A DNA stretch of 64,000 bases from an uncultured Bacilli bacterium. Lineage in GTDB: Bacteria > Bacillota_I > Bacilli_A > RF39 > UBA660. The translations under genes and the position numbers were made by a program. Positions within the stretch are counted from its first letter, which is position 1; every line of letters begins with the position of its first letter. Where the stretch lies: contig CANQYB010000001.1 in NCBI GenBank assembly GCA_947627975.1, positions 7,997 through 71,996 of the forward strand, read 5' to 3'. The notes under the pieces were generated by a model. That model ran no database searches, was not told where the DNA came from, and saw nothing but the letters and a program-made list of their open reading frames with translations. Shown piece after piece: positions 9,590 through 51,148 of this stretch.

Positions 9590-9590
9590 T

Positions 9591-26940: not shown

Positions 26941-27436
26941 CTAACAATTTCCTTTGCAAATCAAACATTATTTTTTCATCTTCTTTATTTTCATGATTGT
27001 ATCCAAGTAAATGTAAAAGACCATGAATTGCTAAAAAAGATAATTCTCTTTTTATGCTGTGACCATAATCTTTTGCTTGTCTTTCCATTTGGGGAATTGA
27101 AATATAAATATCACCAAGAACTCTTACATTTTTATTATTTATATTAGCTTCATCTTCAAAAGCAAATGAAATAACATCTGTAACTTTATCTATTTTACGA
27201 TAAATTTTATTAATTTGTTTAATCTCATCATCATCTATTAAAATTATGGAAAAAATAGAATTTTTAATTTTTAAATATTCTAAACTTTTATTTATTGCCT
27301 TTTTTAAAAATATATATTTTTTTTTATTATAAGTATTTACAATATTATAATCATTCATATAATTAAACCTCTTACTAAAAAAATTAAACAAATAATTGTT
27401 TAATTTCATTATATTATAAAATAAAAATTTTTGCAT
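26927..27436 (-). CDS. ybeY: rRNA maturation endoribonuclease YbeY
   Basis: Metal-binding 'HGLLHLLGYNH' motif. 169 aa. Confidence 0.9.
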   Translation of the reverse strand: MQKFLFYNIMKLNNYLFNFFSKRFNYMNDYNIVNTYNKKKYIFLKKAINKSLEYLKIKNSIFSIILIDDDEIKQINKIYRKIDKVTDVISFAFEDEANINNKNVRVLGDIYISIPQMERQAKDYGHSIKRELSFLAIHGLLHLLGYNHENKEDEKIMFDLQRKLLDEKI

Positions 27437-28605
27437 TAATTTATTTTTGGGGAAATATTTTTAGTATATGTTTGTTGTTGACCAATTTTTTTATAAACTG
27501 ATAAAAATACTTCAGCCTCAATTGTATTTTTATTTCTTACCTTTTTTAGTATTTTTTGTTTTTCAATGTACTCATAATCTTTTAAATTTTTAGTAAATTT
27601 ATTTTTTATATTTAAATAAATCATTTTATCTTCTTCATTTTTACTTATAGTTTTTTTTATTTTTTCTTCTTTTTTTAAAATTTGAAAATAAAATTTAGTA
27701 TTAAAAAAATGAAACAAATAAATATTTTTCACACTAAAATTTTTGAATTTATTTTTAAATATTATATATTCCTTATCTAAAGTTTTTAATTTTAAATTAT
27801 ATCTTTTTTTATTAGTTTGTTTTTTTTCAATATAATTAACAGGAATTTTGACATAGGCAGTATACCAAACTGTAGCATATACTTCTCCACTTGCACACAC
27901 ATCGCTTTTAACTTCTTCATCTTTTTTAATTTCTCCACTAATAATTATGTCACCTTTTTTTACATAATCATTTATATCTTTTATTTTTATTCCCTTTATA
28001 GCTCTTACATTTTTAATAAGTCCATCTTTATTTGCTACTATATTACAATATTTTTCTTTTTCTTCATTTTTTTTATTAATTATTCTTTTTTCAACATGAA
28101 CTATTAATTTCATACCTTTTTTTTCAAATTCAATCCATTCTAAAGTATCTTCATGTTTATCTAAAATTTCTTTTTTAATTTTTTCTTTTATTTTATAAGA
28201 TTTATTAAAAGTTAATTTTCTTATTCCATAATTATCTAATTCGTTATATAATAAATTTCTAATAAATTTATCACTTGAATATATATCTACTGATATAATT
28301 ATATTTGAAAGAACAAATAATAAAATTATTCCAGCTAAAATAGTAATCAAAAACAATTTATTTTTTATAATAATTTCTTTTATTTTATAAAATCCAAGTT
28401 GTGAATCAATTTTACATTTAAATAATTTATTTATTTTCTTAAAATCACTTTTTAATATGGTTAAATATATTTTATTATTATTTATAGTTAAGTTTTGGTA
28501 ATTAATATTTTTTTTTATTAAAAAATTTATAAAATATCTATAATCTTTTTCATATACAATAATTTTAACTTTAGAAATTTTTATATCATTAATTATATTT
28601 TTCAT
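27436..28605 (-). CDS. yqfD: sporulation protein YqfD
   Basis: 389 aa with a central TM segment and Lys-rich ends. Occupies the yqfD position in the yqfC-yqfD-...-ybeY-dgkA-era-recO operon. Confidence 0.6.
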   Translation of the reverse strand: MKNIINDIKISKVKIIVYEKDYRYFINFLIKKNINYQNLTINNNKIYLTILKSDFKKINKLFKCKIDSQLGFYKIKEIIIKNKLFLITILAGIILLFVLSNIIISVDIYSSDKFIRNLLYNELDNYGIRKLTFNKSYKIKEKIKKEILDKHEDTLEWIEFEKKGMKLIVHVEKRIINKKNEEKEKYCNIVANKDGLIKNVRAIKGIKIKDINDYVKKGDIIISGEIKKDEEVKSDVCASGEVYATVWYTAYVKIPVNYIEKKQTNKKRYNLKLKTLDKEYIIFKNKFKNFSVKNIYLFHFFNTKFYFQILKKEEKIKKTISKNEEDKMIYLNIKNKFTKNLKDYEYIEKQKILKKVRNKNTIEAEVFLSVYKKIGQQQTYTKNISPKIN

Positions 28606-33067: not shown

Positions 33068-35098
33068 TTAATTGTAAGTTTTTATTTTATAATTCCTATT
33101 ATTTAATATAATTTCAACGCTTCCATCTTCATCAGTTCGATATATTTTAGACTTTGATAGAATTTTTAAAACATTTTCATTTGGATGTCCATATTTATTA
33201 TTTTTGCCAACTGAAATTAGCGAATATTTTGGATTAATAGTATTTATAAAATTTAAACTTGAAGACGTATTTGATCCATGATGACCTACTTTTAAAAAAT
33301 CTATATTTGTTAAATTATATTTTTTTACTAAATCTTCTTCTTTTTTTATTCCAGCATCTCCCATAAATAAAAATTTATAATTTTCATAATTAAAATATAT
33401 TACATTAGAATTATCATTTTCATTATTGTATTTTTTTGTATTTAAAAATTGAAATTTATCATATTGTTCAACATTTTTATAATAAGAAATTTTTTTGCTT
33501 TTTAATATTTTAATTAATTTTAGTTCCAAATTATTATATTCATCATTGTTAAAAATAACATTCTTAACTTTTATTTGTTTTATAAAATATTTAGCATATC
33601 CCATATGATCATAATCCCCATGAGTTAAAATAAGATAATCAATTTTATTTATTCCCTTACTTTTTAAAAAAGTTATAATATTATCTTTTAAATATTCATT
33701 ATAACTACCACCTGTATCAATCATTGTGACATTTTTATTAAATTTATCTTGAATTATAAAACAATCACCTTGAGATACATCTAACATATAGACATAACTA
33801 TTAAAATTTAAATAAGGAATTAATTTTATAAAACAAAACAAAAATATAATATAAATTAAAAGTTTTATTCTTTTTAAATTAATTAAATAATAAACTAAAG
33901 GATAATATATTATTAACAAAATAATATTAAATTTTGGAAAATTTAAATTTAATATTTTAATATTAGCCAAAAATAAAGATATTTTTTCTAAATTAATAAT
34001 TAATATATTAAATAATTTTAGAAAAATAGGAAATACAAAACAAATTAATGATAATGGATAAATAATAATTGTAATTAATGGAACAAATAACAGATTATAC
34101 ATAATTGATAATAAATTAATTTCATAAAAATTTAAAATAGTTATTGGTAAACTATATAAAAATGCTACTAATGATACTTTTAATATTTTTAAAAAATATG
34201 AGCCATTTTTTAAAAAATTATAACTAATTAATAATCCCAAACTAGTAATAGTAGAATAAAAAAAGGAAATACTATAAATGTAATTATAATTTAAAAAAAA
34301 CATTAAGGAAATTGCTAAAAAAAATAAATTAATAGCCTTTATAGATAGATTAAATAAATTATTAAATTTAAATAAAATAAATATAATTAACGCTCTTACT
34401 ATTGAAGGAGTAAATGAAGTTAAAAAAGCATAATAAATCAAGAGTAAAATAATTATTAAATATATAATTTTTTTAGGTAATTTTATTTTATTTAGTAAAA
34501 TAAATAAAATACTTGAAAACAATGTTACATGCATACCAGATATAGCAAATAAATGAGAAATACCGTTTTTTTGGTAAGATTTTAAAATATTATTACTTAA
34601 ATTTTCTTTATCTCCCAATATAAATGTTTTTAAATACCCAGTTTTATCTATTTTAGTAATTCTATGATTAACAAAATTTTTAATATTATAAAATAAATTA
34701 ACTTCATTGTTTACAATTTTAATTTCCTTAACATTCATTGAATAATAAATCTTTTTACTTTTTAAATAATTTTTATAATTAAATGTATTTGGTATTGTAT
34801 TTTTATTAATTAAATTTATATTTCCTTTTAAATTTAATGTTGTTCCTAAAGGCAAAATTATTGATTTATCATCATTATTTTTAAAATAATAAAAAGCAAT
34901 TATTTTTTTTTTATTTTTTACTTCCAAGGTTATTTTTTCACTATCTTTTTCAAAACTAATTAATTTACCTATAAAATCATTTTGTTTTATTTTAGAATAA
35001 TTAAAACTATATATATTAAATATTACCCAAATTAAAGATAAAATGAAAATTATAATATAAATATATTTATACTGTAATATTATCTTTAATTTTTGCAA
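33068..35098 (-). CDS. comEC: DNA internalisation competence protein ComEC/Rec2
   Basis: Polytopic competence domain followed by a metallo-beta-lactamase domain 'LILTHGDYDHMGY'. Downstream of comEA. Confidence 0.85.
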   Translation of the reverse strand: MQKLKIILQYKYIYIIIFILSLIWVIFNIYSFNYSKIKQNDFIGKLISFEKDSEKITLEVKNKKKIIAFYYFKNNDDKSIILPLGTTLNLKGNINLINKNTIPNTFNYKNYLKSKKIYYSMNVKEIKIVNNEVNLFYNIKNFVNHRITKIDKTGYLKTFILGDKENLSNNILKSYQKNGISHLFAISGMHVTLFSSILFILLNKIKLPKKIIYLIIILLLIYYAFLTSFTPSIVRALIIFILFKFNNLFNLSIKAINLFFLAISLMFFLNYNYIYSISFFYSTITSLGLLISYNFLKNGSYFLKILKVSLVAFLYSLPITILNFYEINLLSIMYNLLFVPLITIIIYPLSLICFVFPIFLKLFNILIINLEKISLFLANIKILNLNFPKFNIILLIIYYPLVYYLINLKRIKLLIYIIFLFCFIKLIPYLNFNSYVYMLDVSQGDCFIIQDKFNKNVTMIDTGGSYNEYLKDNIITFLKSKGINKIDYLILTHGDYDHMGYAKYFIKQIKVKNVIFNNDEYNNLELKLIKILKSKKISYYKNVEQYDKFQFLNTKKYNNENDNSNVIYFNYENYKFLFMGDAGIKKEEDLVKKYNLTNIDFLKVGHHGSNTSSSLNFINTINPKYSLISVGKNNKYGHPNENVLKILSKSKIYRTDEDGSVEIILNNRNYKIKTYN

Positions 35099-35747
35099 AT
35101 AATAAATCCCCTATTCCTGTTACATTTTTAATGTCATCAATATTAGCAAAATTACCATAACTAGCTCTATAATCTAAAATAGCTTGTGCTTTAGAAGAAC
35201 CAATAGATTTTAAAGTCATTAACTCATCTAAATTAGCTGTATTTATATTAATTTTATCATTTGTAGAATTTGTATTATTTGATACTTTACTACTAGAATT
35301 GCTAGAAATAATTGAAACATTTTTATTAGTTTTTAGACAATTAGTATAATCAACATCATTTGTATTACATGTATGATTTTCATTCAATTCCTCTTTTAAT
35401 TCATTTTTACTTTTTATAATAATTACCATTTCTTTTTCTAATTTTTTACTTAAATTTATATTTAAAGTAGTAGCATTTTTTAATAATCCTCCAGCCATAT
35501 TTATTGCATCATTAACAATATTATTACTTTTAACTTTATAAACTCCTGGATTTTTTACATAACCTTTTATATCAATAAAAAAATCTTGGCTATTTATTTT
35601 ATTACTCTTTTTTTCTGTTATTTCATTTGTTTCTGATGATACTTGATTAGAATTTATAAAAAATAATATACCGATTAAAATTATTAAAAAACTTATAATG
35701 TACAAATATTTTTTTATATATTTTCCTCCTTTCACATATATGTACAT
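35067..35747 (-). CDS. comEA: competence protein ComEA (SLBB + helix-hairpin-helix DNA-binding)
   Basis: N-terminal TM and a C-terminal HhH pair 'INTANLDELMTLKSIGSSKAQAILDYR'. Confidence 0.8.
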   Translation of the reverse strand: MYIYVKGGKYIKKYLYIISFLIILIGILFFINSNQVSSETNEITEKKSNKINSQDFFIDIKGYVKNPGVYKVKSNNIVNDAINMAGGLLKNATTLNINLSKKLEKEMVIIIKSKNELKEELNENHTCNTNDVDYTNCLKTNKNVSIISSNSSSKVSNNTNSTNDKININTANLDELMTLKSIGSSKAQAILDYRASYGNFANIDDIKNVTGIGDLLFAKIKDNITV

Positions 35748-38416: not shown

Positions 38417-39502
38417 TTGAAAAATATCACCAAACGTATAAAATTTGTATTTATAATTACATTATTATTTTTAATTATAATTATTTTAAAAGTCTTTTAC
38501 ATTCAAGTTATTGACTATAAAAAGCTAAATAAATTATCTGCAGATCTTTGGGGCAGAAATTTACCTATTGCCGCTGAAAGAGGAAAAATACTTGATAGAA
38601 ATGGTAAAATTTTAGCAGATAATATAACTACTACTTCTCTTGTACTAATTCCTAATCAAATAAAAAATAAAGAAAAGGTTGCTAAAGATTTGGCTAAGAT
38701 TTTAAATGTATCTTTAAAGGAAATGGAAAAACATGTATACAAAAAGACCTCAATTGAAAGAGTTCATCCAGAAGGAAGAAAATTAAGTTATGAAATTGCT
38801 AAAAAAATTGATCAACTTGCATATGATGGAGTTTATCTTGTAAAAGAATCTAAAAGATACTATCCTTATAAAGAATTACTTGCACATACTTTAGGCTATG
38901 TTGGAATTGATAATCAGGGATTATCTGGTCTTGAATTAGAATATGATGATTATTTAACTGGAAAAGATGGCGCAATAAAATACTTTTCAGATGGAAAAGG
39001 AAAAAAATTGGCATTATCTGAAGTTTACGTTCAACCTCAAAATGGAATTGATGTTAATTTAACAATAGATTTAGATATTCAATTATCCATTGAAAGAGAA
39101 CTAAATAATGTTGTAGAAAAATATGATCCAGAACATGCTTTAATAATTGCAATGGATCCTAATAATGGAGAAATTTTAGGAATGGGTTCAAGGCCATCTT
39201 TTGATCCAAATAATTATCAAAATTATTCTAATGAAGTTATTAACCGTAATTTGCCAATATTTATGACTTATGAACCTGGATCAACTTTTAAAATAATAAC
39301 TTTAACTGCTGCTCTTGAAGAAAAAAAAGTTAATTTATTTAAAGATCGTTATACAGATAGTGGTGGTGTTACTATAAATGGTGCAAGAATAAAATGCTGG
39401 AAAGCTGGAGGACATGGTGATCAAAGTTATTTAGAAGTAGTTGAAAATTCATGTAATCTTGGAGTAAATACAGAAACATATTTGAATTTAAAGAATTACT
39501 AG
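38417..39502 (+). CDS. spoVD: SpoVD-like class B PBP, 5' segment of a gene split by a 15.5-kb insertion
   Basis: TTG start with RBS AGAGAGG. The ORF encodes the dimerisation domain plus the start of the transpeptidase, including STFK, and ends '...LEVVENSCN' followed by 15 element-derived codons and a stop. It is collinear with B. subtilis SpoVD up to the SCN of the SXN motif. The host portion ends at 39458. Confidence 0.8.
   Translation: MKNITKRIKFVFIITLLFLIIIILKVFYIQVIDYKKLNKLSADLWGRNLPIAAERGKILDRNGKILADNITTTSLVLIPNQIKNKEKVAKDLAKILNVSLKEMEKHVYKKTSIERVHPEGRKLSYEIAKKIDQLAYDGVYLVKESKRYYPYKELLAHTLGYVGIDNQGLSGLELEYDDYLTGKDGAIKYFSDGKGKKLALSEVYVQPQNGIDVNLTIDLDIQLSIERELNNVVEKYDPEHALIIAMDPNNGEILGMGSRPSFDPNNYQNYSNEVINRNLPIFMTYEPGSTFKIITLTAALEEKKVNLFKDRYTDSGGVTINGARIKCWKAGGHGDQSYLEVVENSCNLGVNTETYLNLKNY
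39455..39458. other. attL core (AATC) at left element/host junction
   Basis: The same tetranucleotide is present at 54954-54957. The host reading frame is collinear across the two copies. Confidence 0.55.
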
Positions 39503-39600
39503 GAAATAAAATAATTTACTCTACCCAGATAGATGTTTGTTCTACCTATAATTTAATTTATGAAGGAGTTAAATATTCAAATATTGAAGAAAATAATATA

Positions 39601-40383
39601 ATGCCAAAAGAACATATTATAATTTCTAATTTTAATATAGAAGATAATAATATTAAAAAGAAACAAATGCATTTTGATACAAGTACTTATGAAAAGTTAA
39701 TTTTTAATAAAAAAACAACTGCTATTAATTTATTCAATAGTTTAGATAAAAAAATTTTAGGTATAGGAAAAAATATATCAAGAAATTATTTAATTAAAAA
39801 TGTTGTCTATAAATTAAAAAGGAAGATTGTTGAGGTACAAATCAATCAATCTAATTTATTAGTATCATTATATAAAGAAGCAAAAAGATTTGATAATAAT
39901 AATAAATTATTATTAAGAAAAGGATATGAAAACACTAGTTTATGTTATTTTATACAAATTGAAAGTGATGAAGATATTAACTACTGTATTAATCTAATAC
40001 AAAAAATGTATAATTATCTTATCATTTCTAAAATTGATTATATTGATATACTTTATAAAAAATTAGTATTCAATATCAAATTAATAGATAACTCTATAAC
40101 TTTTCATAATACTAACAAAGGATTAATATTTAAAGGAAAAAGAAATTTTACAATTTTAATTAAGCAAAAAAATAATGTATATATTAGACTTCTTAATGTA
40201 GATGACAAAAACAATTTATTAGGAATAATAAAAAGAACAACATATGAGCCATTATGCAAATATTTTAAAGTTTACAAAGATGAAGATATAAATTTTATAA
40301 TTCCTTATATTAAAAATAGTTTCGAATTATCAAAAATTAATCCACTAGATTTAAAACATGATTTTATAAAATTATATTACTAA
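39601..40383 (+). CDS. hypothetical protein at left end of element (frame is open back to the attL junction at 39457)
   Basis: 260-aa ORF with a weak RBS. The same frame has no stop for 47 codons upstream, right back to the junction. Confidence 0.45.
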   Translation: MPKEHIIISNFNIEDNNIKKKQMHFDTSTYEKLIFNKKTTAINLFNSLDKKILGIGKNISRNYLIKNVVYKLKRKIVEVQINQSNLLVSLYKEAKRFDNNNKLLLRKGYENTSLCYFIQIESDEDINYCINLIQKMYNYLIISKIDYIDILYKKLVFNIKLIDNSITFHNTNKGLIFKGKRNFTILIKQKNNVYIRLLNVDDKNNLLGIIKRTTYEPLCKYFKVYKDEDINFIIPYIKNSFELSKINPLDLKHDFIKLYY

Positions 40384-40465: not shown

Positions 40466-41530
40466 ATGAAAATTGAAAGTGATTTTATTACTGGTAAAAA
40501 TAAAGTTAATTTTACCAATTCACTAAATGCTCCTTTACTATATTTAAAGCTAAGTGTAAATTCTGAAACTATTATTCCTGATACTAACGATTTAATAATT
40601 TATGTTGATAATGATGAAGATGGCCTTAACAGAAAAACATATGCATATACTTTAAATAATAAGCTACAATTAAATGACCAATTTATTATTGAAAGTAAAA
40701 TTTTAAATAATAATTTAAATATGACGGCTTATATTAAAAACGAAGAAAAATTAGAATATATCGATTATGAACCAATAAATACTTTTGATGGAAATAATTA
40801 TTTATCAACTAATTATGAAAATATAGAAATCGAACTAATATATCCAGAAAATAATGATTTAAGTAAAAGATATCTATTAAATTCTATATACAATGAAAGT
40901 GAAAGTATAAATGAAGCAGATAATAATTTCAATGCTTTTACTAAAGATGAAAATGGCATTAATTTAGATGTTAATAATTTAAATGTTGGATGTATTACAA
41001 ATTCAAATAATAATTTTAGTGTTGATACTGATGGAAATATTTTAGCAAATAGTATAACATTAAAAAATGGTGTTAATTTAAATTATGAAGACTTATTTGA
41101 TAAGATATATCCTGTTGGTTCTATTTATATTTCAGTAAATAATATAAATCCTAGTACTATTTTTACAGGAACTTGGGAAGAATTTGCTCGTGGACGAACT
41201 TTAGTTGGAGTTGATGAATCACAAAATGAATTTAACGAAGTTTTGAAAACTGGTGGTAATAAATTATTACAATCTCACATTCATACTGGAACTACTAATG
41301 TTACAGGAAGCCATCAACATACTGGAAATACATTAGAAGTTCAAAAGAAAACTTCAAGTTCTAGTGATTGTGCCAGAAATATTTCTTCATCATATGATCA
41401 TGTTGGTGTTACAATAACTAATCCTGCAGGAGATCACTCTCATACATTTACTACTGAAAGTGCTGGTGCAGGTGATTCAGGTAACTTACAACCATATATA
41501 ACTTGTTATATTTGGAAGAGAATATCATAA
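40466..41530 (+). CDS. phage tail-collar (tail fibre) domain protein
   Basis: 'YPVGSIYISVNNINPSTIFTGTWEEFARGRTLVGVD...LLQSHIHTGTT...GSHQHTG...GDHSHTF' follows the tail-collar pattern P.G.I...P...G.W....GR...G followed by a histidine-rich repeat. RBS GAGGTGA. Confidence 0.65.
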   Translation: MKIESDFITGKNKVNFTNSLNAPLLYLKLSVNSETIIPDTNDLIIYVDNDEDGLNRKTYAYTLNNKLQLNDQFIIESKILNNNLNMTAYIKNEEKLEYIDYEPINTFDGNNYLSTNYENIEIELIYPENNDLSKRYLLNSIYNESESINEADNNFNAFTKDENGINLDVNNLNVGCITNSNNNFSVDTDGNILANSITLKNGVNLNYEDLFDKIYPVGSIYISVNNINPSTIFTGTWEEFARGRTLVGVDESQNEFNEVLKTGGNKLLQSHIHTGTTNVTGSHQHTGNTLEVQKKTSSSSDCARNISSSYDHVGVTITNPAGDHSHTFTTESAGAGDSGNLQPYITCYIWKRIS

Positions 41531-41614
41531 AAAGATATTCTTTTTTCTTTTTTTAATGACTTTGGCACTTACTAACATATTTATTTGAACATATTATGAA
41601 AATGGTGATACAGT

Positions 41615-41941
41615 TTGATAAAATTTTATATAAATATTAAACAAGAGTTAAATATTCTAAAAGAAAGAAAAAAATTATTAGATTTTGAAAAAGATATAAT
41701 AGATAAGTTAATTATTAAAAAAGAAGATAGTTTAAATATAATAGATAATCATTTAAAAGAATTAAAAGGAATTGAAAATAAATTATACTATCAAATAGTA
41801 GTTCTCGGAAAAAGTGTTACAAAAGCTGTCGATAAAGTTGCATTTGACGAATATAAAGATGTATCGACAATTTGGAAGAACTACTACCCTAATGTGAAAA
41901 AAAAATTAAAAGAATTAGAAACTCTAGCAAATAACAAGTAA
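41615..41941 (+). CDS. hypothetical coiled-coil protein
   Basis: 108-aa ORF with a TTG start and GGTGA RBS. Lys/Glu-rich helical. Confidence 0.4.
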   Translation: MIKFYINIKQELNILKERKKLLDFEKDIIDKLIIKKEDSLNIIDNHLKELKGIENKLYYQIVVLGKSVTKAVDKVAFDEYKDVSTIWKNYYPNVKKKLKELETLANNK

Positions 41942-41971
41942 AATTTTCATATATTAAATTAGAGGTGAAAT

Positions 41972-44900
41972 ATGAAAGAATTAATAAATAAGCGAAAACT
42001 TCGTGAAAAGCATTTTTTAAAACCAAACGGTGAAATAATTGCATATACTTATGATTCAGATGTACACTATTTAAAAAATGGTCAATATGAAGACATAGAT
42101 AATACAATTATTAAGACATCTAATGGCTATGAAAATAAAAATAATTCCTTTAAAACTATTTTTAATGACAATAATTTATTAACATTAAAAAAAGATAATA
42201 ATTATTTAATTTTTAATTTAGATAATTTAACAAAAATTAATCCTATTAAAAAAGATACAAAAGAAATATTATTTGAAAATATTTCAAATAATATTAATAT
42301 TAGCTATAAACTTATAAATGATAAAATTAAAGAATCTATTATAATTAAAGATAAAAATTTTGATTTAGAAAAATTAATTTTTAAAATTGATACCAATTTA
42401 ACTTTAGAAAAAATTGATAAAAAAATTATTGCTAAAAATAATAATGAAACTATTTTTATAATTGAAAGTCCTTTTATGTATGATTCATCAGGAATATATA
42501 ATTATAATGTATTATATGATTTAAAAAAAGTTGAAAATAATTATATTATAGAATTAAGTTTAGATAAAGAATGGTTAAAAGAAAAAAACAGAAAATTCCC
42601 TATTATAATCGACCCAACAATCACTAATTATACAAATGAAAATAATGTTTATGATACTTATATTTATGAAAATGATTCAAATGTTAATAGAAATGATCAG
42701 GATATCTTAAAAGTTGGAATTGATAACAGTAATAAAATTTATCGAACTCTACTAAAATTTGATTTACCTACTATTGGAACTGGAAGTCAAATAACAGATG
42801 CACAAATCTGTTTAACAGGCTATCCTAAATTTCCCAATGCAGATATTAAAAATTATTCATACATAGATATACATGAAATGACAACTTCATGGGATGAAAA
42901 ATCAGCAAATTGGAATAATTTTCATGATAAATATAATAAAAGAATAGAAGCATATGGAAACTATACTGCTAGTCTTAATTTATTGGAAGAAGTTGTACCA
43001 AAATTTAATTATTATAACATTACTAATTTAGTTAAAAAATGGTATTCTGGTCATCCTAATAATGGTGTAATGTTAAAAGCACATTATGAAACTCGTGATA
43101 AAAATGATGATATTTGTTCTTATTTTTCTAAAAATAATCTTGTAACTAATTATAATCCTAAACCTTTACTTGCTATAACATATCGCAATCAAAATGGTTT
43201 AGAAGATTATTTGGCGTATAAGAAACAAGAATTTCAAAACGGTACTACATATTTAAATAATTATAATGGTAATTTGACAACATCATTTGATATTATAAAT
43301 ACTATTGGTGGAAAGATGCCTTTAAAAATTATAATGCATTACAATACAAATGATGTTGTTCTTAAAAATAATTATGGCTATGGTCTTGGATATAAATTAA
43401 ATTATCATGAAATGATTAAAGAAGTTAAAATCGAAGAAACAAATTATTTAGAGTATACTGATAGTGATGGTACAATTCATTATTTTTCTGAAAATGAAAA
43501 TATATATAAAGATGAAGACGGTTTAAGATTAGAAGCAGTTAAAGATAATAATATCTATACAATCACAGATATTGATGGTAATAAAAAAGAATTTACTTTA
43601 ATTAATAATATTTACTATTTAACAAAATTAATATCTACAGAAAATTTTACTAATTTAATTGAATATGATAATAATCGTATAGTTAAAATCACTGATGAAA
43701 ATGGAGATACTATCAATATTACTTATGAAGATGGTAAAATAACCTTTGCTAATAAATATAAGACAGTTATTATAAATTGCAATGCAAATGGCCAAATGAC
43801 TGAGCTTTTAAAAAATGGAACTACGACTTCATTTATATATAATAATTTAAATTTAATAGATAAAATAATAGATACAAACCAATTATCGATAAAATATGAA
43901 TATTATGATGCTATACCTTATCGTATGAAAAAAATTACAGAATATGGTTTAAATGATACCTTAGGTAAAGAAATAAATATTGAATATGGTTTTAATATTA
44001 CTTCCTTTAAAGATAATCTAGGTCATAAAAATACATATACTTTTAATAATATGGGTAATCCTATATCAGTTACTAATTTAGATATTAATGAAACTTTAAG
44101 AGATGGTTATGGACAAAATAATTTGTTCAGTGATTTTTATGGTTTAGAAAATAAATTACTTTCCAGTGAACAATTAAATAAAACTATTAAAAATTATATT
44201 AATAATTCAAGTTTTGAAACAAATGAAGAAATTTTTATGGGGCCAAATGTATCATTTACTAATGAAGAAGCAAGATCAGGATTAAGAAGTTTGAAATTTA
44301 CTGGAAGTAATTCATATAACATGATTAATATAGATGCGAAAGAATGTTATTATACTTTTAGTGGCTATTTTAAAGGTACTGGTAAAGCACAAATAAGTAT
44401 TCAATTACATGATAGTAATACTTATATGTATGAAACATTAAGTGATGAATTTTCTTTAACAGATGAATTTGAAAGACACGATGTAACATTCTATGTTTCA
44501 GAAGACTTTGCTAATTATGTAGATATTTATATTCATTTGGATGGTCTAGTATTATATCTTGATGATATTCAATTAGAAAAAGGTGAAGTTGCCAATCAAT
44601 ATAATTTAATTGATAATTCAGACTTTTCTGAAAATTTAACAGGTTGGGAAATTGAAACACAAGATGAAAATAATGAAGAGATAATTTTAAATAATGAAGA
44701 GATTATAGAACTAGAAAGTGGTTTAAAAGCACTAAAAGTAAATTTAGACCCATATATTTCTAAAACATTATCAAAAACTTTTAATATTTCTGGAAAAGCT
44801 GGAGATACATTTGTTTTATCATTTTGGTATAAAAACGCTTCATTAAATGAAACTATGTGGGCTTATCCAGCAAATTGTTTAGTTAGTTTTAATTTTCCAA

Positions 44901-47900
44901 ACTTACCAGAAGGAGAAGGATTTGACTGGACACCAATTGATACCCAACTTAATTTCAATGAAACAGAATGGCAATATTTTTCAGCAAGTTTTTCTGCAGA
45001 ATATGACTATGATAAAATCTTTTTCAACCTATTTATGTTAAGAAATGCTAATAATATTCAATTAACAAATATAACTTTATATAAAGATTTATCTAACTTT
45101 AATTATGATTATGATGAAAATGGTAATTTAATTGAAGCAACAGATTTAAATCAAAACAAATCTACATTTAACTATGACAAAAATAATCAATTAATTAAAG
45201 AAACTTATCAAAATGGAAATAATTTTTCATATGAATATGATAATATTAATCAAACAAAATTATTAAGTAGCATTTCTGGAACAGGTATTGCCAATGAAAT
45301 TAAATATGATAAATTTGAAAATCCAATTATTACTAAAATTAAATCAATTAAAACTAATGATACAATTGATGGAGATTATTATATAAGACTTAAAAGTTCA
45401 GAAAAGTATTTAGATGGTGATTATGAAAATAAAACTTTAAATTTCATAGAAAACACTTGTAGTCACGAAGTATGGACTATTAAAAAAGTTGATAATTATT
45501 ACACTATTAAATCATCATTATTAGACTTTTACTTAAATGTAACAAATAATATTGTTAGTCTTTCTAAAGAAAAAACAAAGTTTGATTTTTTTGAAAATGA
45601 CAATAAAAGTTATTTAATAAAAATTTATGATACTGATAATTATTTAAAATATGATAATGATAATAATAAAATAGTTATTTCTACAATTGAAGATGATTCA
45701 AATTTGGAATTCTATTTAGAAGATGCAAGTTACTCTATGTTTGTAGAAAATGAAGCTGAATATACTGAAGATGGAAAATTTATTAAATCAATAACTGATA
45801 CAAATTTTAATAAAATTTATTATGAAATAGATCCATCAAATGGTTTAACAAAAAAAATTACTGATCCAAATGGAGTAAGTACAAATTATACTTATAATGA
45901 AAAAGAACAAATAACTAACATTGAAATAAATAATGAAAAAATAGAATATTTTTATAATAATCAAAATCTTTTAAATAAAATTAAAAGTAATTCTATGGAA
46001 TATAATTTTGAATATAATGAATTTTTAAAACCAAAAACAATTAAAATTGGTGATAATATTACCTTGATTTCCAATGAATATGAAGATAGAAATGGTAATT
46101 TAATAAAAACAACTTATGGTAATGGGCATTCTGTATCATATGAATATGATGATTTAAATCGAATAAAATCAATGACAAAAGATAAAAAATATAATTTCAA
46201 ATATGATAATTTTAATAATATAGCAAAAATTGAATATAATATTCCATCATCAGATACTCCAATAAAATATCAATATGTTTATGATAAAAGTCAAAGGTTA
46301 GTAAAATATTCTCATAAGGATTTTAAATTAGAAAATACTTATGATATCAATGGTAATGTTATAAATAAAAAATATTACTTAAATAATACTAAACAAAACG
46401 AAGAATTTTCATATAATAAAGATGATGCTTTAATTTCATCACAATTTGATAACAATAATAATATTAATTATATATATGATCCGCTTGGTAGATTACAAGA
46501 GCAAAACATAAATAATCTATACAAAACAAAATATGAATATTTAACAAATGGAAAAAGGACTTCTCTACTAATAAATAAAATGACTAACAATAATAATTCT
46601 TATTCATACAAATATGATAAATTAGATAATATTACTCATATTTATTATAATGATAAATTAATATATAAATATTATTATGATGAATTTAATGAACTTATAA
46701 AAGAAGATGATTATATTCAAAATAAAACATTTAGATATATTTATGATAAAAATGGCAATATATTAAGTAAGAATACTTATGAACTTAAAACATTTAATTT
46801 ATTAGATAAAAAAGTATTTGAATATAATAATAAAAATTGGACAGACCAGCTAACCAAATACGAAAATGATATAATCTCTTATGATGAAATAGGAAACCCT
46901 ATTTCTATAGGAAATAATATTACAATAAATTGGCAAAATGGCCGTGAATTGAAAAAATATATTGATAAGGCAAATGATTTAATTATAGAATATAATTATG
47001 ATAAAGATGGAACTAGAACTTCTAAAAATGTTAATGGAAATGAAACTACTTATGTTACAGATGGCGAAACAATTATATTCGAAAAAAATAATAGTAATAT
47101 AATTTATTATCTTCGAGATAGTAATAACGATTTAATAGGACTAAAATATAATGATACAATTTATTATTATTTAAAAAATATTCAAAATGATATTATAGGT
47201 ATCTTAGATTCTAATTATAATCAGATAGCTGAATACACATACGATTCTTGGGGAAATATTATAAGTATTAAAGATAATAACAAAAACGAAATAACTGATG
47301 AAAACCATATAGCTTTAATTAATCCATTTAGATATCGTAGTTATTATTATGATAAAGAAACTAATTTATATTATCTTAATTTTAGGTATTATAATCCTAT
47401 TTGGTCAAGATTTATTAATGCCGATAATTATATAAGCACCGATAAAGATAATTTTATACCTAATTTGTATACATATGTTGCAAATAATCCAATAAACAAT
47501 CATGATTCAACAGGTTATTCTTTAAAAAAATTAATTAAATCTGTAGTTAAAAAAGTAAAGAAAGCTATAAAAACAGTAAAAAAACTTGCAAAAAAACTAA
47601 AAAAAGCTTTTACAGCTGAGGCAGAAGTTGGAATTGGATTAGGAAGCGGTACTATTGCTGGAACTTCTAAAACAGGTAAAACTTTTTCACAAACTATGGG
47701 AGTTGGTTATATTGATGGTGAAAAAAAATATTATACATCAACAGTTGGTTCCTTAGAAAGTGGTAAATTTAAAGATTTTACTTTTGGTGGACAATTTGAA
47801 GTTAGACATTACGATCATGGATATGAAAACCCTATGACACTGCCTTTTGAAATATGGAATGATCCTAATACAGTTAAAACATTTACTCTTTTCAATAAAT

Positions 47901-48022
47901 ATTATGAATATATAGGAAATCAATTAGACAATAGTAATGAAATTTTCATTGGACTTGGTTTTGAAGCATTTTGCTTAGGAGGAGTTAGATTAAAAATAGG
48001 TTTCAATATTAAATTAGATTAA
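41972..48022 (+). CDS. RHS/YD-repeat polymorphic toxin with N-terminal DNRLRE-like and CBM-like domains, RHS core and a C-terminal cationic variable domain; no signal peptide
   Basis: 2016 aa, RBS AGAGGTGA. It carries a DNRLRE-like segment 'ILKVGIDNSNKIYRTLLKFDLP...IHEMTTSWDEKSANWNN'. Many YD repeats are present, for example 'YDKNNQLIKETYQNGNNFSYEYD' and 'YIYDPLGRLQEQ'. The RHS core 'YYYDKETNLYYLNFRYYNPIWSRFINADNYI...NLYTYVANNPINNHDSTGY' precedes a 170-aa C-terminal domain beginning with a KK-rich amphipathic helix. Confidence 0.85.
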   Translation: MKELINKRKLREKHFLKPNGEIIAYTYDSDVHYLKNGQYEDIDNTIIKTSNGYENKNNSFKTIFNDNNLLTLKKDNNYLIFNLDNLTKINPIKKDTKEILFENISNNINISYKLINDKIKESIIIKDKNFDLEKLIFKIDTNLTLEKIDKKIIAKNNNETIFIIESPFMYDSSGIYNYNVLYDLKKVENNYIIELSLDKEWLKEKNRKFPIIIDPTITNYTNENNVYDTYIYENDSNVNRNDQDILKVGIDNSNKIYRTLLKFDLPTIGTGSQITDAQICLTGYPKFPNADIKNYSYIDIHEMTTSWDEKSANWNNFHDKYNKRIEAYGNYTASLNLLEEVVPKFNYYNITNLVKKWYSGHPNNGVMLKAHYETRDKNDDICSYFSKNNLVTNYNPKPLLAITYRNQNGLEDYLAYKKQEFQNGTTYLNNYNGNLTTSFDIINTIGGKMPLKIIMHYNTNDVVLKNNYGYGLGYKLNYHEMIKEVKIEETNYLEYTDSDGTIHYFSENENIYKDEDGLRLEAVKDNNIYTITDIDGNKKEFTLINNIYYLTKLISTENFTNLIEYDNNRIVKITDENGDTINITYEDGKITFANKYKTVIINCNANGQMTELLKNGTTTSFIYNNLNLIDKIIDTNQLSIKYEYYDAIPYRMKKITEYGLNDTLGKEINIEYGFNITSFKDNLGHKNTYTFNNMGNPISVTNLDINETLRDGYGQNNLFSDFYGLENKLLSSEQLNKTIKNYINNSSFETNEEIFMGPNVSFTNEEARSGLRSLKFTGSNSYNMINIDAKECYYTFSGYFKGTGKAQISIQLHDSNTYMYETLSDEFSLTDEFERHDVTFYVSEDFANYVDIYIHLDGLVLYLDDIQLEKGEVANQYNLIDNSDFSENLTGWEIETQDENNEEIILNNEEIIELESGLKALKVNLDPYISKTLSKTFNISGKAGDTFVLSFWYKNASLNETMWAYPANCLVSFNFPNLPEGEGFDWTPIDTQLNFNETEWQYFSASFSAEYDYDKIFFNLFMLRNANNIQLTNITLYKDLSNFNYDYDENGNLIEATDLNQNKSTFNYDKNNQLIKETYQNGNNFSYEYDNINQTKLLSSISGTGIANEIKYDKFENPIITKIKSIKTNDTIDGDYYIRLKSSEKYLDGDYENKTLNFIENTCSHEVWTIKKVDNYYTIKSSLLDFYLNVTNNIVSLSKEKTKFDFFENDNKSYLIKIYDTDNYLKYDNDNNKIVISTIEDDSNLEFYLEDASYSMFVENEAEYTEDGKFIKSITDTNFNKIYYEIDPSNGLTKKITDPNGVSTNYTYNEKEQITNIEINNEKIEYFYNNQNLLNKIKSNSMEYNFEYNEFLKPKTIKIGDNITLISNEYEDRNGNLIKTTYGNGHSVSYEYDDLNRIKSMTKDKKYNFKYDNFNNIAKIEYNIPSSDTPIKYQYVYDKSQRLVKYSHKDFKLENTYDINGNVINKKYYLNNTKQNEEFSYNKDDALISSQFDNNNNINYIYDPLGRLQEQNINNLYKTKYEYLTNGKRTSLLINKMTNNNNSYSYKYDKLDNITHIYYNDKLIYKYYYDEFNELIKEDDYIQNKTFRYIYDKNGNILSKNTYELKTFNLLDKKVFEYNNKNWTDQLTKYENDIISYDEIGNPISIGNNITINWQNGRELKKYIDKANDLIIEYNYDKDGTRTSKNVNGNETTYVTDGETIIFEKNNSNIIYYLRDSNNDLIGLKYNDTIYYYLKNIQNDIIGILDSNYNQIAEYTYDSWGNIISIKDNNKNEITDENHIALINPFRYRSYYYDKETNLYYLNFRYYNPIWSRFINADNYISTDKDNFIPNLYTYVANNPINNHDSTGYSLKKLIKSVVKKVKKAIKTVKKLAKKLKKAFTAEAEVGIGLGSGTIAGTSKTGKTFSQTMGVGYIDGEKKYYTSTVGSLESGKFKDFTFGGQFEVRHYDHGYENPMTLPFEIWNDPNTVKTFTLFNKYYEYIGNQLDNSNEIFIGLGFEAFCLGGVRLKIGFNIKLD

Positions 48023-48063
48023 TTTAATAATTAAAAAATAAGATACAAAATTTATTATATAAA

Positions 48064-48106
48064 AATGAAATATTTATCTGAAAAAGATATATTTCATTTT
48101 TTTTAA
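48064..48106 (+). terminator. rho-independent terminator after RHS gene (repeat copy 1)
   Basis: atgaaatatttatct-gaaaa-agatatatttcat hairpin followed by a T8 run. Near-identical to 51338..51380. Confidence 0.65.
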
Positions 48107-48257
48107 TTTAATTTAGAAAAATCAAACTGTTAAAATCATAAACATAAATTTTTTAATAATACAATTTGCCAATTCCAAAATAAACATATCTTTAATAAAT
48201 ATTAAAAAAAGCAAATTTATTATAGATACAGAAACTATTGTAGAAAAAATATAATAT

Positions 48258-48295
48258 TTGTGTTATAATTTTAATATAAAGGATGTATTTATATT
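48258..48295 (+). promoter_or_regulatory. extended -10 promoter (TGTTATAAT) plus conserved 20-bp RBS module aatataaaggatgtatttat, copy 1
   Basis: TGnTATAAT lies at 48261-48269. The 20-mer at 48273-48292 is repeated at 49146-49165. Confidence 0.5.
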
Positions 48296-49078
48296 ATGAA
48301 AAAGAAAAGAAAAATAAAAAAAGGTCTAAAAATATTTTTAATTACTATTATTATAACAATTATTGCATTTATTGGAATTGTTGTTTTACTAGCAATTATG
48401 GATTTAAAACAAGAAAGCAATTTAGAACAAGAAATTATAAATTATAATACTAAAGATTTAGCAAAGGATGATTTTACTGTGAAAATAAACACTAAAGGAG
48501 ATTATGCATATGTAGAAAAAGCAGTAAAAGAATATTATAAAAGTCTATCTGATAATGTCAAAACAATAAATTCCTATTTAAACAATGAAAAATTTTCTAA
48601 TCTTTTAACAGTAAATAATTTAGAAAGTGATAGACCTGATTTTACATTTAGTCATAATACTATTAAAATTACAAAAAACAATATTAATAAAGCAATTAAA
48701 AATATCGATAAATTATGTGATGAAAAAACTATTAAAAATTTACTTGATAAAGATAAGCTTGATGATGCTGATTATTATTATGATTTTTATTTGGAGTTAA
48801 TGTATACAAAAAATGATAAAAATAATTTTAAAAATTTAAAAAATAGAACGGATAATCTTGGAACACAATTAAATTCTTATTTAGATAAACTAGATGAAAC
48901 AATTAACTTTTTACAAAAAAATGATAAATCTGTTATATATGAACAAAACAATCAATCAATACTTTTTAAATCTCAAACATTATACATAGAATGGAAAAAA
49001 CAAATTGCAGAATTAGAAGAAATAGCAGAAAATATAGAAAAAGCCGAAAATACTGAAAATTCATCAAATGAAGCTTAA
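48296..49078 (+). CDS. membrane-anchored protein, candidate immunity protein 1
   Basis: 260 aa with a basic N-terminus plus one TM 'IFLITIIITIIAFIGIVVLLAIM', then a soluble Lys/Asn-rich domain. First gene downstream of the RHS toxin. Confidence 0.5.
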   Translation: MKKKRKIKKGLKIFLITIIITIIAFIGIVVLLAIMDLKQESNLEQEIINYNTKDLAKDDFTVKINTKGDYAYVEKAVKEYYKSLSDNVKTINSYLNNEKFSNLLTVNNLESDRPDFTFSHNTIKITKNNINKAIKNIDKLCDEKTIKNLLDKDKLDDADYYYDFYLELMYTKNDKNNFKNLKNRTDNLGTQLNSYLDKLDETINFLQKNDKSVIYEQNNQSILFKSQTLYIEWKKQIAELEEIAENIEKAENTENSSNEA

Positions 49079-49132
49079 ATATCATAGATTTATAAAATAA
49101 AAAAATATTTTTTTATAAAAAATAAAATATTT

Positions 49133-49163
49133 ACGGTATAATCTCAATATAAAGGATGTATTT
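49133..49163 (+). promoter_or_regulatory. promoter (GGTATAAT) plus conserved RBS module, copy 2
   Basis: Contains the same 20-mer as the region upstream of 48296. Confidence 0.45.
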
Positions 49164-50186
49164 ATGAAATTAATTAGAAAAATTAAAGATAAATTAATGG
49201 AAAATCCAAGAAAAACATTTATTATTTGCAATGTAATTTTAGCTTTATTAAATTATGTAACAATGAAAATGGATTTCTTGCTTGATTTTACCATTTTTAA
49301 TATTTTTATTTTCATATTTTATAGAATTCTATTAATATTCATAACAATTTTTAATTGTTACTATATTTATAAACATCCAAAAGATAAATTAATAATAATA
49401 ACATTTTTTGCGACAATTTTATCAATTCCTTTATTCCTAATTTGTTTTGAAACTTATATATTAATGATTTTGGCTTATATAATATTATTCTTTATCATTA
49501 ATAAGCCAGAAAATGTAAAACAAAGTGCTTTAAAAAATATTATATTTTTTATATGTAATATATCATTATTTTTATTATATTATATTACAAATGGAAAAGA
49601 TTTAATAATTGAGATATATCCTATAATTTTTATGGTTATAATAATATTAATAACAATTTTTAATTGCTATTATATTTATAAAAATCCTAAAAACAATCTT
49701 GTGGGAGCAATAGCCATTACTTCTATTGTTTTTTCATTCCCTTTAAGTGATGTTTTTCCTATTTTATATCTTCTAATAATTTTATCTTATTTACTATTTT
49801 TTATAATAAATAAAAAAATAGTTTTAATATTCATTGGAATAGTAGTCTTTATTTTGACATTAACTTTTTCTATAGAATCTTATATTTATAACCATAATAA
49901 TGAAGATTCAAACAAAGCAGTTGATATAGGTTTTTCACCTACTAAAAAGTATTATGGTTACTGTGAAAGTTATAAATTAGCAAATAATAAGTTAGAAAAC
50001 AAATTTTATTGGGGTAAGAAAAAACTACCAATAGATATTTTTAATACAATTGATCCACTTGAACAAAATATAAATATACCAACATGTAAAAAAGGTAAAA
50101 TAAAATGGATAACAGATGATGAAATAGAAGTAAATGGAAAAAAAATATCAATAAAAAATAAATGGGAAAAAAAATTCGAAAGTTAA
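49164..50186 (+). CDS. polytopic membrane protein with internal tandem duplication, candidate immunity protein 2
   Basis: 340 aa with 8 or more TM helices. The module 'ITIFNCYYIYK(H/N)PK(D/N)(K/N)L' occurs twice, about 100 aa apart. The nucleotide repeats are at 49342-49400 and 49652-49700. Confidence 0.5.
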   Translation: MKLIRKIKDKLMENPRKTFIICNVILALLNYVTMKMDFLLDFTIFNIFIFIFYRILLIFITIFNCYYIYKHPKDKLIIITFFATILSIPLFLICFETYILMILAYIILFFIINKPENVKQSALKNIIFFICNISLFLLYYITNGKDLIIEIYPIIFMVIIILITIFNCYYIYKNPKNNLVGAIAITSIVFSFPLSDVFPILYLLIILSYLLFFIINKKIVLIFIGIVVFILTLTFSIESYIYNHNNEDSNKAVDIGFSPTKKYYGYCESYKLANNKLENKFYWGKKKLPIDIFNTIDPLEQNINIPTCKKGKIKWITDDEIEVNGKKISIKNKWEKKFES

Positions 50187-50227
50187 AACATATTAAATTA
50201 ATAAAATTTTTTTGGAAGTGATTAGTA

Positions 50228-51148
50228 ATGATTTGTAAAAATTGTAAGAAAAATATTTCTCAAAAATCTGAGTTTTGTAAATATTGCGGAAATAAAATAA
50301 AAAAAGATAAATTATCTATTATATCTAAAATATTTATTTTCCCTTATATTTTTGTAATGTTTGTTATTTTTATTTTAATGTTTGTTTTTCCATTTGTAAA
50401 TCAAAATAATAATAGTTTAACTAAAGAAAAGTTTATTAATTACATGAAAAATAATAAGTGTAATTTAGTTAATGTTTTAGATAAAGAAAAATATGATGGT
50501 GTAGATTTTTATTATGTAACTAATAAACCTTGTCCTTATTTAGCCAGTTATACTATATTTGAAAATCCTAAAATGCAAAATGCCTTTTATAACAGTTTAG
50601 TAAATGATGTAAAAAATAATTCAAATACTAGAAATAGTAGAGAAATTAACATGTTAAATTATTTTGAAGTTTCAACATACGGGGAAAATTTTAAATTAGC
50701 AGCATCAAAAAATAATGAAGTATTTTATATTTCTGTTAAAAATCAAAATACAGATAAGGCTGTAAAAGTAGCCAAAGAATTTGGATTTTACTTTGAAGAA
50801 AGTCCTATTGGAAATAAATTAACATATATATTTATAATTATGTTAGTACTTATACTTATGATTAGTTGGTGGAAAATAAATATTAAAATGGGAAGAAAAG
50901 GTTGGATTTGTTTAATACCAATTTATAATATATTATGTTTATCTAAAGATGTTTTTGGCTCTTATAAATATTTTATAATATATTTAATACCCCTATTTAA
51001 TATTTATTCTATACATATAACATGTTATAATTTAGGAAAAGTATTCAAAAAAAGTGAAAACTATTTAATTGGTCTTGTATTATGTTTCCCATTATTTGTT
51101 TCAATGTTAGCATTTGATGATTCTAAATATATTATTGAAAAAAAGTAA
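50228..51148 (+). CDS. zinc-ribbon membrane protein, candidate immunity/accessory protein 3
   Basis: N-terminal 'CKNCKKNISQKSEFCKYCGNK' zinc ribbon, then a TM, a soluble domain and two C-terminal TM helices. Confidence 0.5.
   Translation: MICKNCKKNISQKSEFCKYCGNKIKKDKLSIISKIFIFPYIFVMFVIFILMFVFPFVNQNNNSLTKEKFINYMKNNKCNLVNVLDKEKYDGVDFYYVTNKPCPYLASYTIFENPKMQNAFYNSLVNDVKNNSNTRNSREINMLNYFEVSTYGENFKLAASKNNEVFYISVKNQNTDKAVKVAKEFGFYFEESPIGNKLTYIFIIMLVLILMISWWKINIKMGRKGWICLIPIYNILCLSKDVFGSYKYFIIYLIPLFNIYSIHITCYNLGKVFKKSENYLIGLVLCFPLFVSMLAFDDSKYIIEKK

Follow-up and report, generated by a model that had tools for sequence, protein, structure and literature searches.

A large serine recombinase gene that appears to continue across its own attP site in a family of elements inserted in spoVD

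Why does the recombinase gene of an integrated element run past the end of that element into host DNA, and to what does the open reading frame (ORF) at the opposite end of the element belong? These questions are raised by a 64,000-nucleotide stretch of DNA from an uncultured Bacilli bacterium (assembly GCA_947627975.1, contig CANQYB010000001.1, positions 7,997 to 71,996 of the forward strand), hereafter called the window, in which the host gene spoVD is split by a 15.5-kb insert. Joining 38417..39458 to the sequence from 54958 onward gives one 630-aa ORF, which reads ...VVENSCN/PGFVNLG... across the insertion point (the slash marks the junction) and scores 716 bits against the spoVD_pbp model TIGR02214, for which the curated cut-off is 688. 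Precise excision is thus predicted to regain the frame of spoVD, the property that places the insert among the elements that intervene in sporulation genes. Every ORF of the insert is on the plus strand, co-oriented with spoVD, and mraY and spoVE/ftsW are found downstream of spoVD. As set out below, the ORFs at the two ends of the element are probably parts of one composite recombinase gene, with the attachment site of the free element, attP, inside it.

The recombinase gene is located at the right end of the element (Table 1), and its start is preceded by a strong Shine-Dalgarno sequence (AAGGAGGT). The encoded protein contains the Resolvase (PF00239, 97.5 bits), Recombinase (PF07508, 69.5 bits) and Zn_ribbon_recom (PF13408, 32.4 bits) domains, all above cut-off, as well as the motif YGRVSTDKDDQ at residues 26-36, and this domain content identifies it as a predicted large serine recombinase (LSR). 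The LSR ORF has no stop codon inside the element: after ...INTKQ (CAA, 54953-55) it reads SRFCKFRS followed by a stop, which is spoVD sequence in the -1 frame. When the element was closed into a virtual circle, the frame went on with TCT TGG AGT... from 39457 through 48 stop-free codons to ATG 39601, and from there to the stop codon at 40381-83. The crossover is thereby followed by 308 additional codons and the ORF reaches 873 aa, against 573 aa in the integrated state, where the frame entering the left end is closed at the junction by an in-frame TAA (39454-56) composed of the T of a host Cys codon (TGT) and the AA of the core. The first-pass annotation of this DNA had proposed that the recombinase ORF is not closed by the element and ends in host spoVD sequence, that the excised circle reads through into the left-end ORF, that a TAA closes this frame at the junction, and that integrated and excised forms encode different C-termini; our reconstruction agrees with it on each of these points. 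It had further considered the stop-free stretch improbable by chance, which holds, at the order of a few percent, which does not: the probability of 48 stop-free codons was 0.004 by shuffling of the 144-nt stretch and 0.005 from the base composition of the element, making it roughly ten times rarer. Among the 51 window ORFs of at least 150 aa, the longest gap between an upstream stop and the first ATG, GTG or TTG was that of the ORF at 39601, with 48 codons; the next longest was 15 codons and the median was 4.

The two ends of the element, attL and attR, share AATC alone, with no long direct repeat. AATC, earlier named as the core, is indeed common to both ends, but the crossover itself is AA, the rest of the tetranucleotide being alike only through the codon choice of this host. 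A virtual attP (54928-54955 joined to 39457-39482) displays dyad symmetry at 20 of 26 arm positions around AA, compared with a mean of 8.6 at randomly chosen element positions; the probability of at least 18 is 1e-4. Both arms are coding, giving ...KCCCINTKQ/SWSKYRNI... across the crossover, and the first 22 bases of the P' arm (TCTTGGAGTAAATACAGAAACA, 39457-39478) are unique in the window at up to three mismatches. The predicted attP is an imperfect palindrome of ~54 bp, centred on AA and lying within the coding sequence of the composite LSR gene, and it has the form of LSR-type sites, that is, a short imperfect palindrome with a central crossover dinucleotide. In the integrated state, both genes broken at the junctions acquire foreign tails, the recombinase ORF as described above and the cut spoVD 5' ORF by gaining 15 element-encoded codons (LGVNTETYLNLKNY, 39457..39502, plus strand) before its stop.

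A search with the virtual 873-aa protein retrieved two proteins of 871 aa, P0043 and P0044, with 73% identity over 100% of the query length. They are encoded on metagenome contigs of 33.8 kb (L002) and 7.2 kb (L003), which were obtained from different samples with different assemblers; their junctions are identical. Both contigs show the order coupling protein, 81-aa ORF, LSR::attP::linker::DUF5655 and further element genes, with no spoVD nearby. The check suggested beforehand, whether homologous elements drawn as circles have a single long recombinase ORF, was therefore answered by ORFs present in real DNA. Compared with the window, L002 shows 86% identity in the LSR core, 48% in the LSR tail, 71% in the linker and 53% in DUF5655, and the 22 bases of the P' arm are identical. 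It also carries a full type IV coupling protein (T4CP, 680 aa), a MobL-type relaxase, a VirB4-like ATPase and an M23 peptidase; this gene set suggests that the element family belongs to the integrative and conjugative elements (ICEs).

The L002 element was also found integrated at spoVD, on L126 (P0098, from a cluster of 1348 member sequences), with 99.35% identity over 2458 nt. The identity stops exactly after ACAAAGCAA, from which L126 continues with CCCAGGATTTGTAG (host N-P-G-F-V) and L002 with TCTTGGAGTAAATACAG (P' arm). By this comparison, one element has been caught in both states, with a predicted crossover at or directly beside AA. A complete integrated element of 10.1 kb, on L100, yields a virtual circle ORF of 877 aa. 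A protein query centred on the junction returned left-end proteins only, with no fusions among its results, and a scan of genome contigs for the junction peptide found one locus, L004. With a looser DNA pattern for the P' arm, 120 mostly random loci were obtained, of which 10 were true relatives after tblastn filtering: nine have linker/DUF5655 matches and L099 has only a 53%-identical LSR. A profile search of 1.84 billion representatives gave 89 matches, indicating a very narrow family, and no further LSR fusions.

We then compared the reading frame on the two sides of the crossover. On the LSR side, all 118 listed relatives (77-99% identity) are open up to ...Q, most of them ending in ...KC[SC]C[IV][DN]TKQ and a divergent subgroup in ...CSHVDTHQ. 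Past this Q, they diverge as Q[SPY][RWG][ILVF][CR]..., which is what host N-P-G-F-V gives in the -1 frame, the codons differing between hosts, and the integrated LSR proteins are 569-588 aa long (one has 607 aa) with unrelated, host-derived tails. This pattern identifies the variable recombinase tails as host sequence. On the left side, eleven ends belonging to four lineages were available, from the window, L002, two L033 copies, L044, L066, L069, L072, L095, L097 and L100. All eleven are open in the matching phase, for 306-312 codons from the crossover, L095 being cut by the contig end. Both sides hold one phase relative to AA, and therefore any pairing of them gives an open ORF in the circle. 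Together with the 871-aa ORFs on real contigs, this common phase bears out the earlier placement of attP inside the 3' part of the recombinase gene.

Several relatives are rearranged at or near these junctions. L033 carries two P'-linker-DUF5655 copies on one contig (960..2645 and 8704..9624, minus strand), one of them at a normal spoVD attL, and the second copy is probably a nested insertion at a pseudo-attB. This second copy was examined as a possible counter-example, since a 54%-identical LSR ends 45 nt upstream of it at a stop codon of its own. The LSR is, however, a pseudogene that is also interrupted by an internal stop, and a P arm is missing from the junction, so that the case was rejected as a counter-example. 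L004 (10001..11451) has the left end of the window element (P' arm, linker and first 110 codons) within spoVD of a second host, the rabbit-gut metagenome-assembled genome (MAG) Lapin-016 bin18, with flanks only 66-74% identical. At its junction, the host TGC produces ATG-CAA, and an inverted copy of window 49095..50200 interrupts the DUF5655 gene at codon 110. In L125 (9900..10100, MAG GCA_019973115.1), a P-O-P' junction (..CSHIDQKQ/SWSGY..) is present, the recombinase is deleted, and the junction lies beside an inverted spoVD 3' part with an attR-like half site. This locus is best read as a rearranged element remnant with a permanently broken spoVD; a separate 707-aa penicillin-binding protein is encoded in the mraZ-mraW-ftsL cluster. 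Finally, the rebuilt spoVD frame of L100 (12991..13371) stops ~70 codons past the junction; either the host gene has been disrupted a second time, or the sequence close to the end of the contig is faulty.

To describe the evolution of the extension as coding sequence, ratios of non-synonymous to synonymous substitution rates (dN/dS) between lineages were calculated by the Nei-Gojobori method (NG86). The ratio was 0.11 in the LSR core (residues 1-525), ~0.7 in the LSR tail (residues 526-556) and again 0.11 in the P-arm codons (557-565). Past the crossover, a conserved segment (extension codons 9-41) gave values of 0.04-0.8, mostly 0.1-0.4, with dS of 0.4-1.6; L097 and L066, for example, differ in it by nine synonymous and two non-synonymous changes. 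The following spacer (codons 42-72) gave ~1.2-1.5 and the DUF5655 domain 0.3-0.45, a level similar to that of the conserved segment. Synonymous sites in the conserved segment are free to change, and therefore a constraint at the DNA level, as a promoter or a longer att site would impose, does not lie behind its conservation. The substitution pattern indicates instead that these 33 codons are under purifying selection at the protein level. The motif I-D/E-V-x-S/T-T-F/Y-x-L-x-Y-x-G-x-x-Y within the segment is kept in the most distant family members found in the library of 1.84 billion representatives. The spacer is stop-free in four lineages, with in-frame length changes only (shuffle P = 0.017-0.030 in each). 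Judged by these comparisons, the extension evolves under protein-level constraint.

The DUF5655 domain (PF18899) was detected at residues 34-138 of the 260-aa left-end ORF with 33.2 bits (cut-off 24). AlphaFold2 modelled residues 75-307 of the extension largely with confidence, as two tandem alpha/beta repeats. The predicted local distance difference test (pLDDT) score was 82-96 for most 10-residue blocks, with dips to 64-76 near residues 71-80, 151-160, 251-270 and 291-307, and the predicted fold matches those of YdhG, YjbR and the MotA C-terminal DNA-binding domain. DUF5655 proteins were 12-20% identical to the 871-aa query in the full-length alignment, suggesting that they were misplaced in it, and in the literature the name DUF5655 was met in one paper only, where it is a passing mention. 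The resemblance to C-terminal extensions of the TnpX/TndX type that had been put forward for this region was not found; the extension is DUF5655. Nor did the extension match any family of recombination directionality factors (RDFs) in Pfam, NCBIfam or PHROG. We also considered that the extension could itself be an RDF. This is unlikely, because, to judge from engineered integrase-RDF fusions (discussed below), an RDF attached to the recombinase would keep the circle from integrating, and because no similarity to an RDF family exists.

The explanation that best accounts for these observations, and that we consider probable, is a composite LSR gene with attP inside it, from which the circle would produce a long isoform and which integration would truncate, stranding the extension. 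In the circle, the gene is predicted to be continuous and to encode a protein of 871-877 aa, consisting, in this order, of a canonical LSR of ~525 aa, a weakly constrained tether of 31 aa, 17 attP-encoded aa, the conserved 33 aa, a free spacer of ~30 aa and two DUF5655 domains. Integration would cut the gene at the crossover. The right end would keep all catalytic and DNA-binding domains together with a meaningless host-encoded tail, and the extension of ~308 codons would be stranded 15 kb away at the left end, with no promoter, ribosome-binding site or start codon; the 260-aa "gene" annotated there is probably a severed C-terminus. According to this proposal, the long isoform would really be made and would matter, the circular element producing it once excised or when it enters a recipient. 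Since the circle alone can encode it, it would be the form for integration after transfer, and the short isoform would be the one available for excision, perhaps with the product of the 82-aa ORF that precedes the recombinase gene. The extension would most likely add a DNA-binding or regulatory module acting only in the circular state. The two C-termini might then serve to tell the integrative from the excisive state, as the first pass had suggested.

Several points weigh against this explanation. Both isoforms are known here from sequence alone, and to our knowledge canonical LSRs require no such extension. The attP form was seen in one element type only, in two assemblies; the attP-specific pattern RAYACNMANCAATCTTGGNGNNANTAYAG had no match in JGI metagenomes or IMG/VR, and the attP junction could come from tandem copies instead of a free circle. 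The sampled relatives are fairly close, with an LSR identity of at least 77% and left ends from four lineages. The first 74 residues of the extension, which was modelled by itself, had pLDDT below 50 in two AlphaFold2 runs, so that no fold backs a linker domain; a linker-rich alignment in the second run did not raise the confidence of this part, and the conserved segment may be one that folds only against a partner. Lastly, an ATG at extension codon 48-52 or a GTG at codon 45 is retained in most lineages, from which an integrated element could translate DUF5655 separately at a low level.

A further reading goes beyond the composite gene and sees in its fission at attP a directionality switch, in which the long isoform, through its tethered 33-aa segment and DUF5655 module, would be a strict integrase present in the circle only and the truncated isoform, freed from this control, would be excision-competent, with little or no separate RDF. 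We put this forward tentatively, as a doubtful extension of the proposal; if it held, the family would be the counterpart, among bacterial serine recombinases, of the archaeal "suicidal" integrases, and would offer a natural design for state-aware recombinases.

The left-end ORF could instead be an ordinary DUF5655 gene that starts at ATG 39601 or its equivalents, the read-through in the circle being a functionless by-product. Besides the retained ATG and GTG codons, many 256-264-aa proteins produced by gene callers and a confident AlphaFold2 fold that starts only at ~residue 75 agree with such a gene. However, the 33 codons located 5' of the ATG are under apparent purifying selection and kept in the most distant members, and in the window only the recombinase frame could translate them, no ATG, GTG or TTG being found between the junction and 39601. 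ATG 39601 itself has no Shine-Dalgarno sequence (the best match is AAG), whereas a match of 5-8 nt precedes eight of nine neighbouring genes, and in the lineages examined no Shine-Dalgarno sequence stands at usable spacing before any internal start of the extension. One L033 copy has not a single start-like codon in its first 100 codons, and L072 and L095 have a GTG only. The neutral spacer, moreover, is open in four lineages. Gene callers scatter the start of the extension (MQSW..., MLE.W..., MFVEKL..., MIYDGV..., MSDVN...), as is typical of a fragment without a real start. A promoter scan was of no use, sites being no more frequent than in shuffled sequence in this AT-rich DNA. With neither a consistent start codon nor a Shine-Dalgarno sequence, the left-end ORF does not have the features of the clearly independent gene that had been named beforehand as speaking against read-through, and we regard an ordinary DUF5655 gene as unlikely.

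Alternatively, the extension could be expressed mainly when integrated, from the mother-cell promoter of spoVD and with a host-supplied start at attL (TC-ATG-CAA-TCT... or TTG-CAA), as a sporulation-coupled factor such as an excision trigger. The co-orientation of the whole element with spoVD would allow this, and no site resembling an intrinsic terminator turned up in a pattern scan of the DNA from the spoVD 5' part to the extension. In L004, L100 and L033, the host Cys is encoded by TGC, so that the frame is open behind the host ATG or TTG, and called proteins of 294-330 aa (MQSW..., MLE.W...) start in the host half of attL, which is possible solely with this codon. At seven of ten attL junctions, the window among them, the codon is TGT and puts a TAA at the junction. 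TGT or TGC decides the outcome, and expression would therefore hang on a synonymous host base beyond the control of the element. The host ATG has no Shine-Dalgarno sequence, and a recombinase frame that is always open up to the crossover is left unexplained, which makes this alternative quite improbable.

That the open frame is a coincidence of AT-rich DNA and the 871-aa ORFs are assembly chimeras can practically be set aside: the attP form is indeed known from two contigs of one element type only, but a probability of 0.004-0.005 applies to the window alone and the pattern recurs in four lineages, different samples and assemblers gave identical junctions, the attL/attR repeat of 2-5 bp is too short to mislead an assembler, and the junction has the palindromic form that an LSR attP should show (19-20/26).

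Serine integrases are generally taken to work in both directions with a single protein, a separate RDF deciding between them. A literature search on DUF5655, on spoVD in combination with ICEs or intervening elements, and on serine integrase genes that contain attP brought up no precedent in bacteria or among serine recombinases, no report uniting spoVD, intervening elements and serine recombinases, and none of an LSR ORF spanning attP. Partial parallels exist in other systems. In the mycobacteriophages BPs, Brujita and Charlie (clusters G, N and P), attP is located near the 3' end of the repressor gene, which results in integration-dependent immunity. There too, free and integrated genomes encode different C-termini and the difference serves as a sensor of the integration state, but it is a repressor that is split, with a short ssrA-like degradation tag and a tyrosine integrase, whereas here the LSR itself would be split and the part removed would be a folded module of ~300 aa. 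Expression of the recombinase also differs between free and integrated DNA in the sib retroregulation of lambda and with the joint promoter of TnpX in Tn4451. These systems likewise use the att crossover to separate or join a cis element beside the recombinase gene, and they act on mRNA stability or on a promoter, in contrast to the protein sequence that would be affected here.

Recombinase genes that split themselves have been described as a trait of archaeal tyrosine recombinases and as a form of directionality control (PMC8371274). The "suicidal" integrases of the SSV type (SSV1, SSV2, pTN3, pT26-2) resemble the present system in having the site in their own recombinase gene, which is intact only in the free circle. 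They are archaeal tyrosine enzymes, and the split disrupts the enzyme, whereas here a bacterial LSR is cut past its catalytic and DNA-binding domains. Because the enzyme is a serine recombinase with all LSR domains upstream of the cut, the window element is predicted to be an analogue of the SSV-type integrases and not a member of the group. LSR elements in mother-cell sporulation genes include skin/SpoIVCA in sigK, SPbeta/SprA-SprB in spsM and gin in gerE (PMC4191935, PMC5499854, PMC5595907). These share with the window element an LSR gene at one end beside an att site and a host frame regained by precise excision (here that of spoVD), but in published descriptions their LSR genes stop within the element, and a separate RDF sets the direction. 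Fusion of an RDF to the C-terminus of an integrase has been engineered and switches the enzyme to attL x attR recombination (PMC5737554; PMC12286644). In those constructs, as here, an extra module is placed on the LSR C-terminus through a flexible linker. They are synthetic, however, whereas the present extension is natural and limited to the attP state, in which an RDF-like activity would oppose integration.

A widespread element family of gut Firmicutes thus appears to encode two recombinase isoforms, the choice between which would be set physically by the integration state; the integrated LSR cluster of P0098 alone gives an idea of the scale. If the isoforms differ in activity, they would represent a new, RDF-sparing control of directionality and a ready-made part for synthetic recorders, in which a protein sequence reports the state of its DNA. 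If they do not differ, mobile-element genes could still be mis-annotated when the integrated form alone is seen. A general screen is suggested, in which the attP of mapped LSR elements is rebuilt and ORFs that continue across it are sought.

Table 1. Coordinates of the features described at the spoVD locus of the window
Feature	Position	Strand	Remarks
spoVD 5' part, including the AA crossover	38417..39456	+	Integrated-state ORF runs into the element to TAG 39500-02
attL core	39455..39458	.	AATC, common to attR; crossover AA 39455-56
P' arm of attP	39457..39482	+	Encodes SWSKYRNI(F)
Start-less C-terminal extension of the recombinase gene, 308 codons + stop	39457..40383	+	In frame with the LSR in the circle
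Conserved 33-codon segment	39481..39579	+	FEFxExLxNxIxYSxxIDVCSTYNLIYxGVxYS; 5' of any start codon
Variable spacer, ~30 codons	39580..39672	+	Holds ATG 39601, the ORF-finder start of the 260-aa gene
DUF5655 region	39673..40380	+	Two predicted tandem alpha/beta domains; YdhG / YjbR / T4 MotA C-terminal ("double wing") type fold
Cargo and conjugation-gene remnants	40466..52928	+	All co-oriented with spoVD
82-aa ORF directly 5' of the recombinase	52973..53221	+	81-aa ORF at the same position in L002, L003, L100 and L126
Integrated-state recombinase ORF, 573 aa	53261..54982	+	Residues 1-565 element-encoded, last 8 host spoVD in the -1 frame
P arm of attP	54928..54953	+	Inside the recombinase ORF; encodes ..KCCCINTK(Q)
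attR core	54954..54957	.	AATC; crossover AA 54954-55
spoVD 3' part	54956..55808	+	T of the Asn codon, then PGFVNLG... to the stop

The remaining genes of the insert comprise a Gp10_C/tail-fibre-like protein, a 2016-aa RHS-repeat protein, a DUF5684 protein and a shortened T4CP. The last of these (51423..52928, plus strand) has 501 aa and a TTG start, compared with 680 aa for its counterpart in L002. Because the T4CP is shortened and no relaxase or VirB4 gene was found in the window element, this copy is predicted to be a decayed or merely mobilisable derivative of an ICE, and the element as a whole can be described as a putative spoVD-targeting integrative element, conjugative in origin. The RHS-repeat protein (41972..48022, plus strand) has a weak match to a ricin-type lectin; its gene is preceded by the Gp10_C/phage-tail-fibre-like gene (40466..41530) and followed by small unknown ORFs (48296..51148), and the region looks like a toxin-delivery cassette borne by the element. 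The 82-aa ORF located directly upstream of the recombinase had no match in Pfam, NCBIfam or PHROG. By eye, it closely resembles the 81-aa ORFs of L002, L003 and L100 (the L126 copy was outside this comparison), and its size and position would suit a directionality factor or a regulator, for either of which it is a candidate.

Elsewhere in the window, the host context (27436..28605 and 33068..35747, both minus strand) comprises a yqfD-like sporulation gene, comEA/comEC, murG, era and glyQS, the yqfD-like gene scoring 157 bits, which is under the curated cut-off. This context would fit a spore-forming Firmicute with DNA very rich in AT (22.7% GC), labelled "Bacilli bacterium" at NCBI.

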